The notes beneath the pieces were generated by a model. That model had not been told where the DNA came from. It did not search any database and saw nothing but the letters and a program-made list of their open reading frames with translations. A stretch of DNA of 64,000 nt from Candidatus Saccharimonadales bacterium (GTDB lineage: Bacteria > Patescibacteriota > Saccharimonadia > UBA4664 > DATIHN01), in assembly GCA_035480635.1 (NCBI GenBank), contig DATIHN010000016.1, positions 562 through 64,561 on the forward strand, read 5' to 3'. Below are positions 2,417 through 31,536 of this stretch, piece by piece. How positions within the stretch are numbered: position 1 is the first letter of the stretch; each line of letters starts with the position of its first letter. The position numbers and the translations under genes are program-made.

Positions 2417-4870
2417 TTATTTCTTCAGGGTTGGTTGGCCGAGGGTCAGGCCATCGCCGCGGCGCAGCACGGTCACGGTATCGCCGGGTTTGAATTGGCC
2501 TGCCAGGATGCCATTCGCCAGCGGGTCTTCGATGTAGTCTTGGATAGCTCGTCGCATCGGCCGAGCACCCTGATCAACGTCGTAGCCCTTTTCGATTAAG
2601 TAATCTTTGGCTTGGGGCGTAACTTTGAGGCTAATGCCCTGTTCGCTAACACGTTCGTATAAATCGGCTAATTGGACCGCTAGGATTTTGCGCACATCCG
2701 GCCGGCTCAGGCTCTTGAAAACGATGACTTTATCCAGCCGATTTAAGAATTCTGGCCGGAAAGTCTTTTTGAGATCGCCCATGACCTTTTCGGTCACTTG
2801 GTTGTGAGCTTCCTCCAGCTCTTTTTGCTCACCAACGGTTTGGGCCTTAAAGCCCAGCACCGCCTCGCGGTAGAGGCTCTCGGCGCCGACGTTACTGGTC
2901 ATAATAATAATGGTGTTGCGGAAGTCCACCCGCCGGCCTTTGGCGTCGGTTAATTGACCGTCTTCAAGAACCTGCAACAGCATATTGAAGACATCGGGGT
3001 GGGCCTTTTCGATTTCATCGAGCAGCACCAGACTGTAGGGCTTCCGGCGAACGGTTTCGGTAAGCTGGCCACCTTCGTCGTAGCCAACATAACCAGCCGG
3101 AGCTCCGACCAAGCGGGAGGTGTTGTGGCGTTCCATGAATTCGCTCATGTCGATTTTGACGATGGCATCGTCGCTTTGGAACATTTCGCTTGCTAGCACC
3201 CGCGCCAGTTCGGTTTTACCCACGCCAGTGGGCCCAAGGAACATAAATGAGCCGATCGGGCGTTTAGCATCACTTATACCGGTACGGCTGCGGCGGATTG
3301 ATTTGGCCACTTCTTTTACGGCTTCGTCTTGACCAATGACGCGCTTGCGTAGGGTATCTTCGAGTTTAACTAAGTTTTCGGTATCAGTTTTAACTAGACG
3401 AGTCACGGGTACGCCGGTGATCAGGCTAATAACTTGAGCGATGTCCTCGGCGGTAATCTGAATGGTGTCTTCGTTTTTTTGGCTGGAGAGCTTTTGCTCG
3501 ATGATGCTGACCTTGGTTTTGAGCCGAGCGGCCAGTTCAAAATCTTGGCCGTCAACCGCTTCATCCATATCGGCCTTGGCTTCGACCAATTGCTTTTGTA
3601 AACCCCGGGTGTTTTTATTGGTACTGCCGCGCTTAATGCGAGCCAGACTTGCAGCCTCATCGACCAGATCAATGGCCTTATCCGGCAAGAAGCGATCAGC
3701 CACATAGCGCTTGGCTAATTTAGCGGCTTGCTCAATGGCCTCATCGGTGATCTCAACTCGGTGATGCTCTTCGTAACGCTGGCGCAAGCCGTGCAAGACG
3801 GCAATGGTTTCTTCAACTGTCGTTTCGGGCACAATGACGGGTTGGAAGCGCCGCTCCAAAGCCGCGTCTTTTTCAATGTGTTTGCGATATTCATCCAGAG
3901 TGGTGGCACCGATGGTTTGGATTTCGCCGCGAGATAATGAGGGCTTTAAGATGTTGGCGGCGTCAATAGCACCTTCAGCGGCGCCGGCGCCGACCACGGT
4001 GTGGAGCTCATCGATGAACAATATCACTTCAGGTGTGGCCTTGGCCTCGTCTAAAATCTTCTTCAATCGCTCTTCGAACTCGCCGCGGTATTTGGTACCG
4101 GCAATGACGCTGGCTAGATCGAGCATGACGATGCGTTTGTTTAGCAGCATCTCGGGCACTTCGTCGGAAATAATGCGCTGAGCCAAACCCTCGACAATGG
4201 CGGTTTTGCCAACGCCTGGTTCGCCAATTAAAACCGGGTTATTTTTGGTCCGGCGGTTCAAGATTGAGACCACTCGGCCAATTTCATTACTGCGACCAAC
4301 TACGGGATCAAGCTTGCCCTCACTAGCCTTAGCCGTTAGATCAATCCCAAAATGATCCAGGGCCGGAGTCTTCGACTTAGTGCGCTTAGGGCTGGTCGTT
4401 TTGGCCGATTCATCGGAGTAATAGTACTGCTGATTGCTTAAATAATTTTCTAGTTCGGCCCGAACAGTGGCCGGATCAACTTGGATTTCTTTTAATAAGG
4501 AATTAGCTCGAGCACTCTTTTGGCTCAGGATGGCGTAAAGAATATGCTCGGTGCCAGAATAGGGTTGGCCAAATTCTTGGGCAATTCGCAGCGAAATGGT
4601 CAGCGTATCGCGGGCCGTCTCACTGAGTCCCTTGCGATTGGCCCGGGCCAGAGCAGCACTAGAACTACCAGACAACCATAATTCAGCCTTTTCCCAGGTC
4701 ACACCAGCTTCAATCAGAATCTTAGCCCCGATCGAGCCCTCTTGGCGCAACACGCCCAGCAGGATATGTTCGGTGCCAATGTAGCCCGAACCCATGGTTC
4801 TAGCGATCGAATCGGCATTCTCCAGGCTTTTTTTGGCGTTCTCGGTTAATCTTTCAAATGCATCGTGCAT
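2417..4870 (-). CDS. clpC: ATP-dependent Clp protease ATP-binding subunit ClpC (817 aa).
   Basis: Two Clp_N repeats, two AAA+ modules ([16 protein letters not shown]), and a UVR-like linker. Confidence 0.9.
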
Positions 4871-25300: not shown

Positions 25301-25828
25301 GTGGAGATGCCGAAGTTCGCATTAGTTGCCATCGATGGCGATAACATCGACCGCACGCTCTTTGGGGAGCTCAAGAGTCAACTTGCCCCAGGGGTCTTGG
25401 TGGAAGTGATAGCCGAACTGCTCCCCAATCACACCACCTGGAGCCTGGGCTGCTACACGGTTCCGCAAACCGACCGAGCTATGTCTCTCCAGCAGCATTA
25501 TCTGCGCGAGTTGGTGGCAGCCGGTATCGCTATTCGGCGATGGCGGCGGGGAGCCATTCGCGGCCGTACCGTCGGCTACCCCGACAGCTGGCTGGTGGAG
25601 CAGGTGGTGACCATTTGGGATCGATTCGACACGCTGGTATTAGTGACGGCCGACCGGGACTACGTCCCCTTGTTATCTAATGCCCAAGCCATGGGCAAAG
25701 ACACCGTCGTGCTTTCACCTCAACCGGTGGCTTGGCCCAGCTTCGTGCGAGTACATGAACTCGACTGGCTCGACACTCAACACCCAGGTCTTCTACGCTC
25801 ACTTATTGCCGCCCCGGCCTGGATATAA
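25301..25828 (+). CDS. NYN-domain (LabA-like, PIN-related) RNase.
   Basis: ALVAIDGDNIDR and LVLVTADRDYVPLL...GKDTVVL match the NYN acidic motifs. Confidence 0.7.
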   Translation: MEMPKFALVAIDGDNIDRTLFGELKSQLAPGVLVEVIAELLPNHTTWSLGCYTVPQTDRAMSLQQHYLRELVAAGIAIRRWRRGAIRGRTVGYPDSWLVEQVVTIWDRFDTLVLVTADRDYVPLLSNAQAMGKDTVVLSPQPVAWPSFVRVHELDWLDTQHPGLLRSLIAAPAWI

Positions 25829-25979: not shown

Positions 25980-26726
25980 ATGGCAGGTACAGCAAACTCC
26001 ACCGACCAACCGACGTGGGTAACCATCGACATCGTATGTGTCGGTGACGAGCCCATGCTCTGTAACCCGATGAGTCGCGACCAGCTCGTGGCCATCGCCG
26101 AGAAGCGTCCAGTTGCCTGGCCCGCTGACCGTCCTGTGATCGAGCAGGCCGACGTTAAGGCCGAGCTGATGAGGGACACCGACGGCCACTACGGCTTCCC
26201 GCGGCAGTGGCTGCAGGGGGCCTTGAGGGAAGCTGGTCGCTCAGTACCCACCGGTAAGGCTGCTCGGCAGATGATCAGCACCGCTACCAGCACGCGCTTG
26301 CGCACCCTGGTGCGGATCGATCCAGTCTGCCTGAGCTTCAACGCCGACGGTGAGCGGTTCATCCGCTTCAGCAGTCACTCCGAGTACGAACGCGATGTCC
26401 GCAAGGGCGTCGGGGGTAACGCTGCCAAGCCGGTGGCGGTAGCGATCGTGCGGCCGCTCTTCCGTAACTGGGCCTTCCGCGTCCGCATCCAGGCATCCAC
26501 CAGCATCGACACCTCGCGCATTCGTGAGCTATTCGAGATCGCTGGTGCCAGCCAGGGTTTGGGCGACTTCCGCCCCGGCAAGGGTGGCGAGTTCGGCTGC
26601 TTCCAAGTGGCCTCGTTGGTCAAATACGACGATCCAGCCGAGGTACCGGAGTTCGTACTGGCCACCAACGCCATGACGGCGGCGGACAACGGCCAGGGCA
26701 AGGTTCACGAACTCGCCAGCACTTAG
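25980..26726 (+). CDS. Hypothetical protein (248 aa) with a glycine-rich loop GLGDFRPGKGGEFG.
   Basis: Monocistronic unit with its own promoter and terminator. The G-rich loop is loosely reminiscent of RAMP/Cas6 loops; this is unverified. Confidence 0.6.
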   Translation: MAGTANSTDQPTWVTIDIVCVGDEPMLCNPMSRDQLVAIAEKRPVAWPADRPVIEQADVKAELMRDTDGHYGFPRQWLQGALREAGRSVPTGKAARQMISTATSTRLRTLVRIDPVCLSFNADGERFIRFSSHSEYERDVRKGVGGNAAKPVAVAIVRPLFRNWAFRVRIQASTSIDTSRIRELFEIAGASQGLGDFRPGKGGEFGCFQVASLVKYDDPAEVPEFVLATNAMTAADNGQGKVHELAST

Positions 26727-26743
26727 CCGGCCAACCGACTTGT

Positions 26744-26779
26744 GGGCCGAGGCTTCGTGCCTCGGCCCACTTTCTTTTG
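26744..26779 (+). terminator. Rho-independent terminator.
   Basis: GGGCCGAGGC TTCGT GCCTCGGCCC followed by ACTTTCTTTTG. Confidence 0.65.
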
Positions 26780-26856
26780 CCCTCATACATGTGGCAAAAG
26801 ACAAATTTTGGTCTGCTGAGCCATCTCGTTGTGCATCTTAAGTTCCATTAATTCTG

Positions 26857-27761
26857 GAGGGAGAACTCAAGTTCTCGCAAATAGTCTGGTCGAGTACAGT
26901 GGGGTCGTGTAGGTAAAGGCTTGCAGAACTACGGTACCGGGTAGGGACTGATGTTCCTACCATACCTAATGTTGGGCTAGGCTTGGTTCCGCTGGGTTGG
27001 TCAGCGTTTAGTGTGGTTATCTACCGGGCAGCAGCCGTCATGCTACTGCCAAACCTGCCCTACGGTGTGGTCCGGCCTGCTTCGTTGTGATGCCACCCAG
27101 TTAGGCATGGGGTAGCGGTCGCCAGACCGCTACTATAACTCCGGTAGGGTCCGCCATTGCAGTGTCGCCCACGCAGTTGTATGGCCCGCATGACTAGGGT
27201 TTGGTGGACTTTGGGGCGGCAGCCGACAGGTTGCCGCCATTACCTTATGTAAGGTTTACTGGGTTAGGGTTCGGCTCCATAGGCCTAGCTATTCTGCTGC
27301 TCGGGGCGGGAGAACCAAGATTCTCCCGCCAACCCTATTGTTTGGTACTGCCAGCTCACGTAAAGCATAGCTGCGTAGTCTAAGGCAAGGGGCAGCAGCT
27401 CCGGCTGCTGCCATCAGTCACGGTGACGTTCCGTGGATTAGGCTTTTGCCAGCCATGGCGTTGTCATGCTTGGTACGGGGTGGGAACCACAAAGCTCCCA
27501 CCATGGTTAGTCCACTGTGTGGTTGAGCCTGGTTTGTCGTCGTCGAGCTTGGCACACTTAGGGGCGAGACCGCTTGAACGGTCTCGCTGACACTTGTGGT
27601 AAGGTTGAGATCCCTACAGTAGAGTGCTATCGGCTTAGCTACGGGGTAGTGGCTCCGGCCGCTGCCGACATTGTGGTCGACTAGCGTAGAGTTGATTACT
27701 CTGTTGTGTGTCTCGTTTGAGTTTCCTAAGGGGTGGGGAGGGACTAAAATCCTTCCCCACC
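26857..27761 (+). repeat. Array 1: 11 tandem units of about 85 bp, each starting with a GGGG-initiated GC-rich stem-loop. Sequences diverge but structure is conserved.
   Basis: Hairpin starts at 26857, 26939, 27026, 27109, 27214, 27303, 27389, 27477, 27561, 27643 and 27730, with 82-105 bp spacing. Stems co-vary, with plus-strand G-U wobbles and one C-A mismatch in unit 3. There is no ORF. Confidence 0.7.
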
Positions 27762-27870
27762 AACAACTTTCATCGTTCTTATGGTGCTATCGTTTCACAT
27801 ACGATGCCACCTCGGCCTGATGACAGTCCGGACACCTTGACACTCGAATAGATAGAAAGGAGGGAACCGC

Positions 27871-29694: not shown

Positions 29695-29757
29695 GGAACA
29701 CATTTACGGTAGAGCCAGGCTAGATACGTTAGTGCAGCGCGAAGCAGGCTAAGTTGT

Positions 29758-30790
29758 CGGTGGAGAGGCCGAGCTATGGGCCTCTCCACAAACTATCTGG
29801 TTCGGTAACGCGGGCTCAACTTTTGTGCCGTCATCTACTGATTGGTGCGGGGCAGCGACTTTGGTCGCTGCCAATCATTAGCTTCGGCTAGGTCAGGCTT
29901 TGCGCGCTGCTATAGGGCGGAGTTTGGTCCTGGTGGGGAGGCGAAACAGTTGGCCTCTCCACAAAACTTTCGTTAAGGTGTGGTATGGTTTGCCAGTTTT
30001 CGGTCTGCCACATCTTGGGTGGAGAAGCCAAACAGCTTCTCCATGAAAATCAGTGGTAGGGTAGCACGAGCCGTTGGACTCAGCCTTATTCTTGGGTATC
30101 GGGTGGAGTACCCAACTCCACCAAAAATTTGCTTAGCTATGCTAAGGTTATCCCCGGTGGCCTACGGTCTGGGACGGAGGCATTAGTGTCTTCGTCAAAC
30201 CTTAGGTATGGTGACCCCCTCTCCGTTGACGTATGCCAAGGCCACGTAGCTTGCGTTTCTGTTGAGCAGCGAATTGGGCGGAAGCAGAAATGCTTCCGCC
30301 ACTATTTCCGTCAGCTCGGGTTGGCTATGATGTCGTTGCGTTGATCTGGGAACGGTCTACTAGACTACGGGGCGGGGTTGTGTAACCCCGTTAAAAATTA
30401 CGGTCTGTTCAGGCTAGGCGAGCCATGCTGACTTTAGACACGGCCGGCTTCGGGGTGGGAGTGACGATGCTTCCACCAGAAATATCGTCAAGTCGAGAGA
30501 TGCACAGTGCTGTTGTTTTGCGTGAAGTACGGCTCGATAGGGTAAAGGGTGGCCGAGCAATCGGCCACTATGACTTGGGTTCGCTACTCTGTAGTAATGT
30601 CGCTTTCAGCATCGCATAGTATTGGGTGGCTGGCTTGCTAGCCACCAGCCCTACGCTAGGATTCAGTCCGGCTTTGTGGGCCTCGGTAGCTCACGGCATT
30701 CCACAGCCCGCTCGAGTCCGTTGCATTGTTCAATGGTTCAGTTGGGTAAGCGGCGGGGAGGCAGTTAAACTGCTTCCCCGCCTTTTCAAT
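29758..30790 (+). repeat. Array 2: about 11 tandem units of the same GGGG-hairpin family. The last hairpin doubles as a terminator.
   Basis: Hairpins at 29761, 29851, 29933, 30020, 30102, 30277, 30373, 30452, 30547, 30624 and 30752. G-U wobbles are plus-strand only. Hairpin K is followed by TTTTC. Confidence 0.65.
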
Positions 30791-30870: not shown

Positions 30871-30944
30871 GGCACCATGGCGGAGTGGTTACGCAGAGGT
30901 CTGCAAAACCTTTTACACCGGTTCGATTCCGGTTGGTGCCTCCA
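30871..30944 (+). tRNA. tRNA-Cys (GCA).
   Basis: Cloverleaf with anticodon loop CTGCAAA, T-loop GGTTCGATTCC, and an encoded CCA. Confidence 0.85.
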
Positions 30945-31076
30945 GGAATTTGGTACAGACATTTGTCTGTGCTGGATTCCTACGAAGCCGGAAGCGAAAG
31001 CGTAGGTTCGGTGGACGTAGGCGCGCAGGCAAGGGACAATAAATTGGTTCTTGCCGAGCACCGAGGGAGGTGGCTG

Positions 31077-31095
31077 CCAAGCCACATTCCGGTTG
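31077..31095 (+). repeat. 19-nt duplicate of the tRNA-Cys 3' end (ATTCCGGTTGGTGCCTCCA).
   Basis: Exact copy of 30926..30944, 133 bp downstream. It resembles an att-site footprint. Confidence 0.7.
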
Positions 31096-31105
31096 GTGCC
31101 TCCAA

Positions 31106-31192
31106 GTAAAACCAGGGCGAGTGGCGGAATTGGTATACGCGGCGGACTTAAAATCCGCTGCCAGCAATGGCTTGAGAGTTCGAGTCTCTCCT
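31106..31192 (+). tRNA. tRNA-Leu (TAA).
   Basis: Anticodon loop CTTAAAA, long variable arm, and CCA. Confidence 0.8.
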
Positions 31193-31240
31193 CGCCCACC
31201 AAAGATAGTCGGGCATTCGAATTTTTGCTAGAATGTGCCG

Positions 31241-31316
31241 ATACAACGTGGCGCCTTAGCTCAGTTGGTAGAGCAGTGGCCTGAAGAGCCTCGTGTCGTT
31301 GGTTCGAATCCAACAG
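31241..31316 (+). tRNA. tRNA-Phe (GAA).
   Basis: GGCGCCTTAGCTCAGTTGGTAGAGC ... CTGAAGA anticodon loop ... GGTTCGAATCC ... CCA. Confidence 0.85.
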
Positions 31317-31460
31317 GCGCCACCAGATTTTAAGAAAATCTGATTTTATTAGGCGAAATCAAACCAAGCCAAGCTGTTTGATGAGCCAAAGGAGAAACCG
31401 AATTGTAAGCCGAAAGTAAATTGGTGCCAATTTACGGAGGCTGGAGGTCGGTTTTGACGC

Positions 31461-31536
31461 GCGGGTGTAGCTCAGCTGATAGAGCGCTTCCTTGCCAAGG
31501 AAGAGGCCCCGGGTTTGAGTCCCGGTACCCGCACCA
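31461..31536 (+). tRNA. tRNA-Gly (GCC).
   Basis: GCGGGTGTAGCTCAG ... TTGCCAA anticodon loop ... GGGTTTGAGTCCC ... CCA. Confidence 0.85.

Follow-up and report, generated by a model that had tools for sequence, protein, structure and literature searches.

What is encoded in the long gene-free gaps that flank a helicase gene in the genome of a Candidatus Saccharimonadales bacterium? We address this question in a 64-kb stretch of contig DATIHN010000016.1 (hereafter the window; coordinates given without another label refer to it), in which a plus-strand gap devoid of open reading frames (ORFs; 26727–27870) lies between the gene of a 248-amino-acid (aa) protein and the gene of an XPD/DinG-like helicase, and in which a second intergenic array follows the helicase gene. 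Our analysis indicates that this region is very probably a VIPR (Viral Interference Programmable Repeat) locus, made of vipr, a first vrRNA array (array 1), the helicase gene and a second vrRNA array (array 2). The coordinates of all features are collected in Table 1.

As set out in the text of the preprint that describes them, a VIPR system pairs a minimal RAMP protein (Vipr) with a single accessory gene (vap), and its vrRNAs, about 100 nt long, are encoded in the long intergenic regions that flank these genes (10.64898/2026.04.26.720920). The same text gives each vrRNA 9–16 repeats of the consensus YNNGG, whose GGY is conserved and whose NN is hypervariable, and a structured tail at the 3′ end; NNNGG, YNNNG and NNNNG also occur as consensuses. 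Each vrRNA reads its double-stranded DNA target, in most cases a mobile element, through the NN dinucleotides, skipping one base per repeat. The text distinguishes seven types, in some of which vap encodes a helicase or a nuclease: types III–V carry enzyme vaps, helicases being named among them, and nucleases are given only for types III and V. It places about a quarter of VIPR systems in cellular chromosomes, and it reports hammerhead-interspersed vrRNA arrays and no self-targets (10.64898/2026.04.26.720920). The characterised example is that of Escherichia phage SUSP1 (type II), where substitutions in GGY abolish function.

Hairpins conserved in shape and not in sequence

Plus-strand hairpins of the form GG-GGYR…YRCC-AA recur about every 85 nt in the region, with a spacing of 82–104 nt. 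A first-pass annotation, made from the sequence of the window, had described eleven such hairpins upstream of the helicase gene; all eleven are present at the positions it gave, and the stems that it quoted are correct. We defined a strict hairpin as a G followed by a GGYR arm, with a score (net pairs) of at least 6.5 and an end in CC, CT or TC. By this definition there are 10 strict hairpins in the gap 26727–27870, compared with a mean of 0.16 and a maximum of 2 in 500 dinucleotide-preserving shuffles, and 6 in array 2, compared with 0.16 in shuffles. None is present on the minus strand of either array, and outside both arrays the 64-kb window contains 4 more on the plus strand. The possibility raised earlier, that shuffled sequences would give an equal density of such hairpins, was thus not borne out. 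Tandem Repeats Finder (TRF) reported no tandem repeat in the region, so the units are truly divergent in sequence, as had been noted.

The properties of the stems were derived from 74 hairpins of the window and of two related loci, L001 and L003 (see below). The stem is preceded by GG in 57 of them and opens with the pairs G-C, G-C, Y-R and R-Y; the base that follows it is A in 56 hairpins, the next base being A in 43. As many as 53 distinct 7-nt arms are found, and stem positions 3–7 alternate among the G-C, C-G, A-U and U-A pair types. Pairing past the three basal pairs reaches 99%, to be compared with 61.5% when the 3′ arms are reassigned from one hairpin to another (at most 68.6% over 1000 trials). 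G·U pairs outnumber A·C by 33 to 5 in the whole set and by 14 to 2 in the two arrays of the window, under a definition of stems that treats the two strands alike. The large excess of G·U over A·C, together with the 99% pairing, supports selection on plus-strand RNA structure, not on DNA sequence; the first-pass annotation had reached the same view, while counting a single C-A mismatch (in its unit 3), to which a second A·C in unit 8 (GGTGGGAAC/GCTCCCACC) has to be added. Folding with RNAfold, a check that had been suggested, placed the tail hairpin in the minimum free energy structure of 9/9 units folded, seven of them from array 1, and revealed no recurring fold in the parts of these nine units that lie outside the tail hairpin. 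The tail hairpin is conserved in its base and in its shape, and not in its sequence.

A pentamer code in register with the following hairpin

The 60 nt ahead of each hairpin are organised as twelve in-register pentamers, g-g/c-Y-N-N, flush with the hairpin. When 57 units were superposed ungapped, with the G that opens the hairpin stem as the common anchor, the positions at offsets −5, −10 … −60 were pyrimidines in 74–89% of cases and G in 2–9%, the two positions ahead of each pyrimidine were G in 30–65% (32–65% for the adjoining one), and the NN positions mostly carried less than 0.2 bit. In a Fourier test against shuffles, a period-5 signal of G followed by a pyrimidine was detected in array 1 (z = 6.0) and in array 2 (z = 5.5), and was found neither on the minus strand nor in three coding controls. 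The read-out of our pentamer parser is biased, as shuffled tracts yield a similar logo, and the support for the code comes from the ungapped stacking and the Fourier test. The TGTGGT motif reported earlier after many hairpins is not isolated: it is a piece of this strict 5-nt periodicity, which fills the inter-hairpin space. Both the 5-nt code and the RAMP (Vipr) gene upstream had been overlooked in the first-pass annotation.

Period-5 power is 1.06 when the signal is anchored on the following hairpin and 0.18 when it is anchored on the preceding one, and array 2 opens with a pentamer tract and closes with a hairpin. Since it is the following hairpin that sets the register, and since the order within array 2 agrees with this, a unit consists of a short linker, twelve pentamers and a 3′ hairpin, which inverts the hairpin-first phase assumed originally. 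Counted in this way, the two arrays comprise 22 units (10 + 12). Ten of the eleven units initially listed upstream of the helicase gene possess a strong hairpin; the first (26857) has only the weak 6-bp hairpin at 26861–26876, ahead of which no pentamer tract was identified.

A predicted Vipr-family protein upstream of array 1

The 248-aa protein has no match in the Pfam, NCBIfam and PADLOC families. A profile built from 42 homologs matches the PDB entry 36pp_D, ‘SUSP1 Vipr protein’, with E = 5.5e-12 over residues 4–191 of 202, a profile built from 9 sequences matches it with E = 9.5e-9, and this is the sole solved structure matched by the family profile. In an AlphaFold2 (AF2) model of the protein (pLDDT 88.3, pTM 0.85), the best PDB fold matches are all Cas7-family RAMPs, namely Csm3/Csm5, Cmr4, type VII Cas7 and Cas7-11, with E about 1e-6. 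These profile and model data identify the 248-aa protein as a predicted minimal RAMP with a Cas7-like fold, belonging to the Vipr family, whose members combine an RRM core, a thumb and a glycine-rich loop. In SUSP1 one Vipr protomer binds each repeat; D177, W178 and R179 in the G-loop, together with R138 in the thumb, hold G1, G2 and Y3 (10.64898/2026.04.26.720927). In alignments with the family studied here, the counterparts of these residues are GLGDFRP and the invariant R158: the G-loop GLGDFRP aligns with SUSP1 GVGDWRP and the thumb VRPxFxxW with YRPIFRDW. R158, G193 and R198 do not vary across the 42 sequences, and F197 and P199 hardly do.

A variation on this motif is seen in a Paceibacterota homolog (L005, 3409–4074), whose G-loop reads GLGSFRP, a serine replacing the aspartate that contacts G1 in SUSP1. 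The repeats of that locus (L005, 4075–4900) read AGY/GGY-NN, and the association of the aspartate to serine change with such repeats may represent a protein–RNA co-variation, of which this is a single case.

An XPD/DinG-family helicase between the arrays

The helicase contains the Pfam domains Helicase_C_2, DEAD_2 and DEAD. Its best profile, by a wide margin, is PADLOC typeIV_DinG, matched over the full length with E = 2.4e-39 and 133 bits, and its NCBIfam scores are 39 bits for YoaA and 33 bits for DinG. For the AF2 model (pLDDT 87.5), the top Foldseek matches are E. coli DinG (6fws) and XPD (9p55/5h8w), CasDinG structures occupying ranks 21–37. Four cysteines, C101, C118, C124 and C143, are present without exception across 40 homologs and probably coordinate a 4Fe-4S cluster as in XPD/DinG; to our knowledge, CasDinG lacks this four-cysteine set. 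Domain content, profiles and modelled fold thus assign the protein to the XPD/DinG family. A closer kinship with CasDinG in particular may exist: the sequence profile speaks for it, the fold ranking and the NCBIfam scores do not. Homologs of the helicase are widespread in Patescibacteria.

Conservation of the locus in other Patescibacteria

The order vipr, gap or array, helicase, gap or array is present in 6/6 distinct related Patescibacteria loci (L001/L002 and L003–L007), which differ in their other neighbours. The small proteins of these loci are about 210–250 aa long, have no Pfam family and form one common family. Hairpin arrays together with the period-5 signal were found in the gaps of L001, L003, L004, L005 and L006, so that the search for similar arrays in related genomes proposed in the first-pass annotation was successful. 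The number of units varies from about 2 to at least 24 among relatives, and the variable positions are almost fully turned over; in L003 about 16 units precede the helicase gene and at least 24 follow it, which makes at least 40 in total. Two protein searches yielded at least 17 further pairs of Vipr and helicase homologs on contigs of equal size. A single-sequence pattern scan of genome contigs for the helicase gave no confirmed relatives.

Rfam searches revealed no hammerhead ribozyme in the arrays of the window. Sub-threshold matches to the type III hammerhead lie directly 3′ of the downstream array in L004 (4235–4306; 38.8 bits, E = 3e-7) and in L007 (7132–7174; 29 bits, E = 3e-4).

Guides and candidate targets

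On average, two guides of the 74 agree at 5.8/22 NN positions, which is the random level. One guide is nevertheless common to the window (unit 30301–30392) and to L001 (unit whose hairpin starts at 3256), with 18/22 NN positions identical and with different tail hairpins; the conservation of this guide suggests that the two loci have a common, conserved target. In the 64-kb window, no self-target was detected above the permuted-guide and shuffled controls at skip lengths of 0–3. We scanned IMG/VR for exact 1-nt-skip patterns of five guides and one conserved-core pattern, and metagenomes for the conserved guide. The guide of unit 26962–27050 matches positions 2259–2290 of a viral contig (L008, IMGVR_UViG_3300039106_000391) at 22/22 positions, over eleven pentamers. 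With a permuted control of 16 bases and identical composition, 14 hits were obtained, from which about 0.01 chance matches at 22/22 are expected per guide and about 0.05 for five guides. This match is suggestive only as a target.

Comparison with SUSP1 and with other RNA-guided systems

The anatomy of the locus was established independently, and it fits the published vrRNA grammar point by point. As in VIPR systems, including SUSP1, there is a Vipr-family RAMP of about 200–250 aa, guides shorter than 100 nt are made of about 12 pentamers with a kept G-G-pyrimidine, free NN positions and a structured 3′ tail, the arrays lie in long intergenic regions beside two genes, one accessory gene has a predicted DNA-related function, and no self-targets are detected, here within the 64-kb window. 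The locus differs from that of SUSP1 in its position on a bacterial chromosome among housekeeping genes instead of in a phage, in its accessory gene, predicted to encode an XPD/DinG-like helicase where SUSP1 has a small DNA-binding protein, and in the size of its arrays, which total 22 units (at least 40 in the case of L003) compared with 4 in SUSP1. With regard to the type, enzymes occur in types III–V and nucleases only in types III and V, so a helicase-linked system would be type IV; this tentative assignment follows by elimination from the text of the preprint (10.64898/2026.04.26.720920). The supplementary text of the preprint mentions neither Patescibacteria nor a helicase type, and the locus is possibly a member of a little-described type of VIPR, a system itself known since 2026.

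Several observations weigh against the VIPR assignment. Conservation of the two guanines, at 30–65% G, is much weaker than in SUSP1 and closer to the YNNNG and NNNNG variants; the tails are variable hairpins with compensatory changes and no evident pseudoknot, whereas the SUSP1 tail is invariable and contains one; and the aromatic residue that stacks on G2 is a phenylalanine here and a tryptophan in SUSP1. The helicase, whose family is widespread in Patescibacteria, might simply be a housekeeping DinG with the arrays around it by chance of position. As for targets, four of the five guide patterns and the conserved-core pattern had no exact match in IMG/VR, and the conserved guide had none in IMG/VR or in the metagenomes scanned. 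In the L008 match the skipped base falls on codon position 1, not on the wobble position, the L008 contig has 36% GC compared with about 50% in the window, and no other guide matches it. Finally, the text of the preprint does not show whether its seven types include one that pairs Vipr with a helicase in Patescibacteria.

Other RNA-guided systems share some of these features. The locus resembles type IV-A CRISPR-Cas, in which the effectors Csf1, Csf2, Csf3 and Cas6 go with CasDinG, in combining a RAMP-based, putatively RNA-guided complex with a DinG-family helicase and no nuclease, and in that its helicase matches the type IV DinG model best among sequence profiles. Interference or repression, and not cleavage, is the mode of action of type IV-A. 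It differs from the present locus by an array of identical repeats, which is absent here, where the guides are non-contiguous pentamer codes; moreover the locus has a single RAMP, with no Csf1-, Csf3- or Cas6-type protein among the neighbouring ORFs screened, and its helicase keeps the four invariant cysteines and has DinG and XPD ranked above CasDinG among its fold matches. Class 1 CRISPR RNAs and Cas7 filaments offer a broader parallel, with one RAMP subunit per RNA segment of fixed length, periodic base flipping, a variable guide with a structured handle, and tandem arrays processed from a long transcript. The period, however, would be 5 nt with 3 bases sequestered here instead of 6 nt with 1 base flipped, the guides of the locus contain internal conserved positions, their handle hairpins are non-identical, and screening of the neighbouring ORFs revealed no adaptation genes. 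ToxI of type III toxin–antitoxin systems and TIGR-Tas likewise have, beside a small protein gene, an array that is processed into tandem short RNA units, but there the units are near-identical and the partner is an endoribonuclease toxin or a Nop-domain Tas protein, respectively, whereas here the units are divergent, carry an internal 5-nt code and are next to a RAMP gene.

Alternative explanations

Hairpins and periodicity alone name no partner, and the conservation of G1 and G2 is weaker than in characterised VIPR. These points would suit a cluster of small structured RNAs unrelated to the RAMP gene, for instance a protein sponge or a small-RNA family, in which the 5-nt period would reflect binding of some other factor. 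We hold this to be very improbable, because a Vipr homolog adjoins the arrays in 6/6 distinct related loci while the other neighbours change, and because repeat length, the conserved G-pyrimidine and the order of tract then 3′ tail are those of the published vrRNA grammar. Among the options put forward in the first-pass annotation, a processed small-RNA cluster or a CRISPR-like array pointed in the right direction; a long structured untranslated region (UTR) of the helicase mRNA would not suffice by itself. In the UTR explanation, the arrays would be long structured 5′ and 3′ UTRs acting in cis on mRNA stability or translation. No terminator was found between array 1 and the helicase gene, or between this gene and array 2, the first one being at 30752–30786, which makes co-transcription of array 1 with the helicase plausible, and the last 110 nt or so ahead of the helicase ATG are conserved. 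Co-transcription, however, is equally compatible with a processed guide array; the number of units ranges from about 2 to at least 24 among relatives, where the variable positions are turned over, and the inter-hairpin sequence is hypervariable except for its 5-nt frame, while a UTR needs no pentamer code. We consider UTRs to be a shade less probable still than an unrelated RNA cluster.

The helicase profile PADLOC typeIV_DinG, the adjacent RAMP protein and the alternation of hairpin ‘repeats’ with variable segments would all be expected of a decayed or atypical CRISPR array, for example one related to type IV. That the array is no canonical CRISPR had been recognised from its lack of conserved repeats, and near-identical repeats are indeed missing (none by TRF, and 53 distinct 7-nt arms in 74 hairpins), the variable segments are themselves pentamer repeats, and the helicase fold is as close to E. 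coli DinG and to archaeal XPD as to CasDinG. Besides the Vipr-type RAMP, nothing Cas-like was found among the flanking ORFs screened, Cas1, Cas2, Csf1, Csf3 and Cas6 not having been searched window-wide. Distant relatives retain this non-CRISPR architecture, which therefore has not decayed, and the earlier suggestion of decay is unsupported; a decayed or atypical CRISPR array is in our opinion harder to believe than either of the preceding explanations. Lastly, the hairpins might act at the DNA level, as palindromic repeats akin to repetitive extragenic palindromes (REPs) and bacterial interspersed mosaic elements (BIMEs), or as other protein-binding DNA hairpins. REPs are organised as a conserved 5′ tetranucleotide beside a variable GC-rich palindrome, and the conserved tetranucleotide and variable GC-rich palindrome of the present units resemble them. 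Against such elements, which usually alternate in orientation and bear no strand-specific RNA signature, all units have one orientation, G·U outnumbers A·C, the period-5 signal is on one strand, and no RAYT or other transposase family was found among the ORFs screened with Pfam, which leaves this explanation with a negligible probability, the lowest of the four.

Proposed mode of action and significance

The mechanism that we propose for the Saccharimonadales VIPR locus is carried over by analogy from the SUSP1 system. The arrays would be transcribed on the plus strand, probably with the helicase, and then cut into units, each unit of about 85 nt becoming one guide RNA. One Vipr protomer would bind each pentamer, with the GGY bases flipped out and held and the NN dinucleotides presented, and the resulting filament would recognise double-stranded DNA with every third base skipped (xNN per pentamer), in the form of an R-loop or a triplex. 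The hairpin would mark the 3′ end of the guide, where it may halt filament growth, shield the end or guide processing, and it would be selected for its shape only. The helicase would be recruited to bound targets as the effector, as CasDinG is in type IV-A CRISPR.

A wider reading, which is speculative and which we regard as rather unlikely, is that the ensemble of Vipr, array, Fe-S helicase and array is an old, largely vertically transmitted, chromosomal system of Patescibacteria and not a weapon of phages, with tails recognised by shape only, and that it is either, through its pairing of a single ancestral RAMP with a DinG-type helicase, a living intermediate between VIPR and type IV CRISPR-Cas or an RNA-guided helicase loader acting on the DNA of the cell itself or of its host. 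If this were true, each guide unit would evolve its own stem, its tail being recognised by shape alone.

VIPR was described only in 2026 and is experimentally characterised mainly in one phage type. Finding its grammar here places it on the chromosome of an ultra-small episymbiotic bacterium, where it would occupy over 2 kb of a streamlined genome; together with a DinG-like helicase, it would persist in distantly related Patescibacteria. The 22 guides of the locus form a natural collection, to which a relative adds at least 40, and their 3′ handle is an example of one constrained in shape only. The pairing of a RAMP with DinG bears on the proposed descent of CRISPR, especially of type IV, from VIPR-like ancestors. 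For genome annotation, such loci would explain large ‘gene-free’ gaps beside the gene of this helicase in genomes of the candidate phyla radiation (CPR).

Layout and genomic setting

Table 1. Features of the candidate VIPR locus, in window coordinates
Feature	Position	Strand	Description
vipr	25980–26726	+	248 aa RAMP-family protein, predicted vrRNA-binding filament subunit
Terminator-like hairpin and T-run after vipr	26742–26778	+	12-bp stem, 10 GC pairs, then TTTCTTTT
Weak 6-bp leader hairpin	26861–26876	+	GAGAAC/GTTCTC; fails the strict hairpin definition
Array 1, ten head-to-tail vrRNA units	26879–27761	+	linker, about 12 pentamers, GGGGY-hairpin tail
Array 1, units 1–5	26879–26961, 26962–27050, 27051–27134, 27135–27238, 27239–27330	+	
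Array 1, units 6–10	27331–27412, 27413–27502, 27503–27588, 27589–27666, 27667–27761	+	
Helicase 5′ leader	27762–27870	+	kept in L001 and L003
vap-type accessory gene, predicted XPD/DinG-family superfamily 2 (SF2) helicase, 607 aa	27871–29694	+	
Array 2, twelve vrRNA units	29695–30786	+	first pentamer tract directly 3′ of the helicase stop codon
Array 2, tail hairpin ends, first six	29789, 29872, 29962, 30044, 30122, 30196	+	
Array 2, tail hairpin ends, last six	30300, 30392, 30477, 30569, 30646, 30782	+	
Last tail hairpin of array 2, also an intrinsic terminator	30752–30786	+	14-bp stem and TTTT

Four tRNA genes (Cys/Leu/Phe/Gly) follow array 2 at 30871–31536. ARAGORN called no tRNA within the arrays, its first call being the tRNA-Cys at 30871, and in the array region no Rfam family reached the gathering threshold, the matches obtained at E ≤ 10 being at chance level. 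Arrays of tRNAs or tRNA-like elements are ruled out by these negative ARAGORN and Rfam results in both arrays. A phage origin of the window was rejected too: it encodes ClpB, NusA, DnaE, GatAB, LigA and UvrABC, four of five of its proteins that were compared have exact matches in a Saccharimonadales metagenome-assembled genome, and comparison with a phage database revealed that tRNAs alone are in common. The genes in the neighbourhood of the locus, as classified with Pfam, encode an NYN-domain protein, LemA, an M48 peptidase and LigA.

The NYN-domain (RNase-like) ORF (25301–25828) lies directly 5′ of vipr, and a homolog with 36% identity occupies the same place in L003. We considered this gene as a dedicated processing nuclease and dropped it as a candidate, as it is beside vipr only in the close relative L003 and not in L005–L007; its presence next to vipr is probably local synteny, and the gene is probably not part of the system.

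The terminator-like hairpin that follows vipr implies that array 1 is read through from vipr partly or not at all; no promoter was identified in 26779–26878. The leader of the helicase gene contains a hairpin (27783–27811), a CCTCGG..TGATGA.. element, CCTTGACA, and an AGGAGG ahead of the ATG. Judging from the sequence, the leader may regulate the gene in cis or contain a site of RNA processing.

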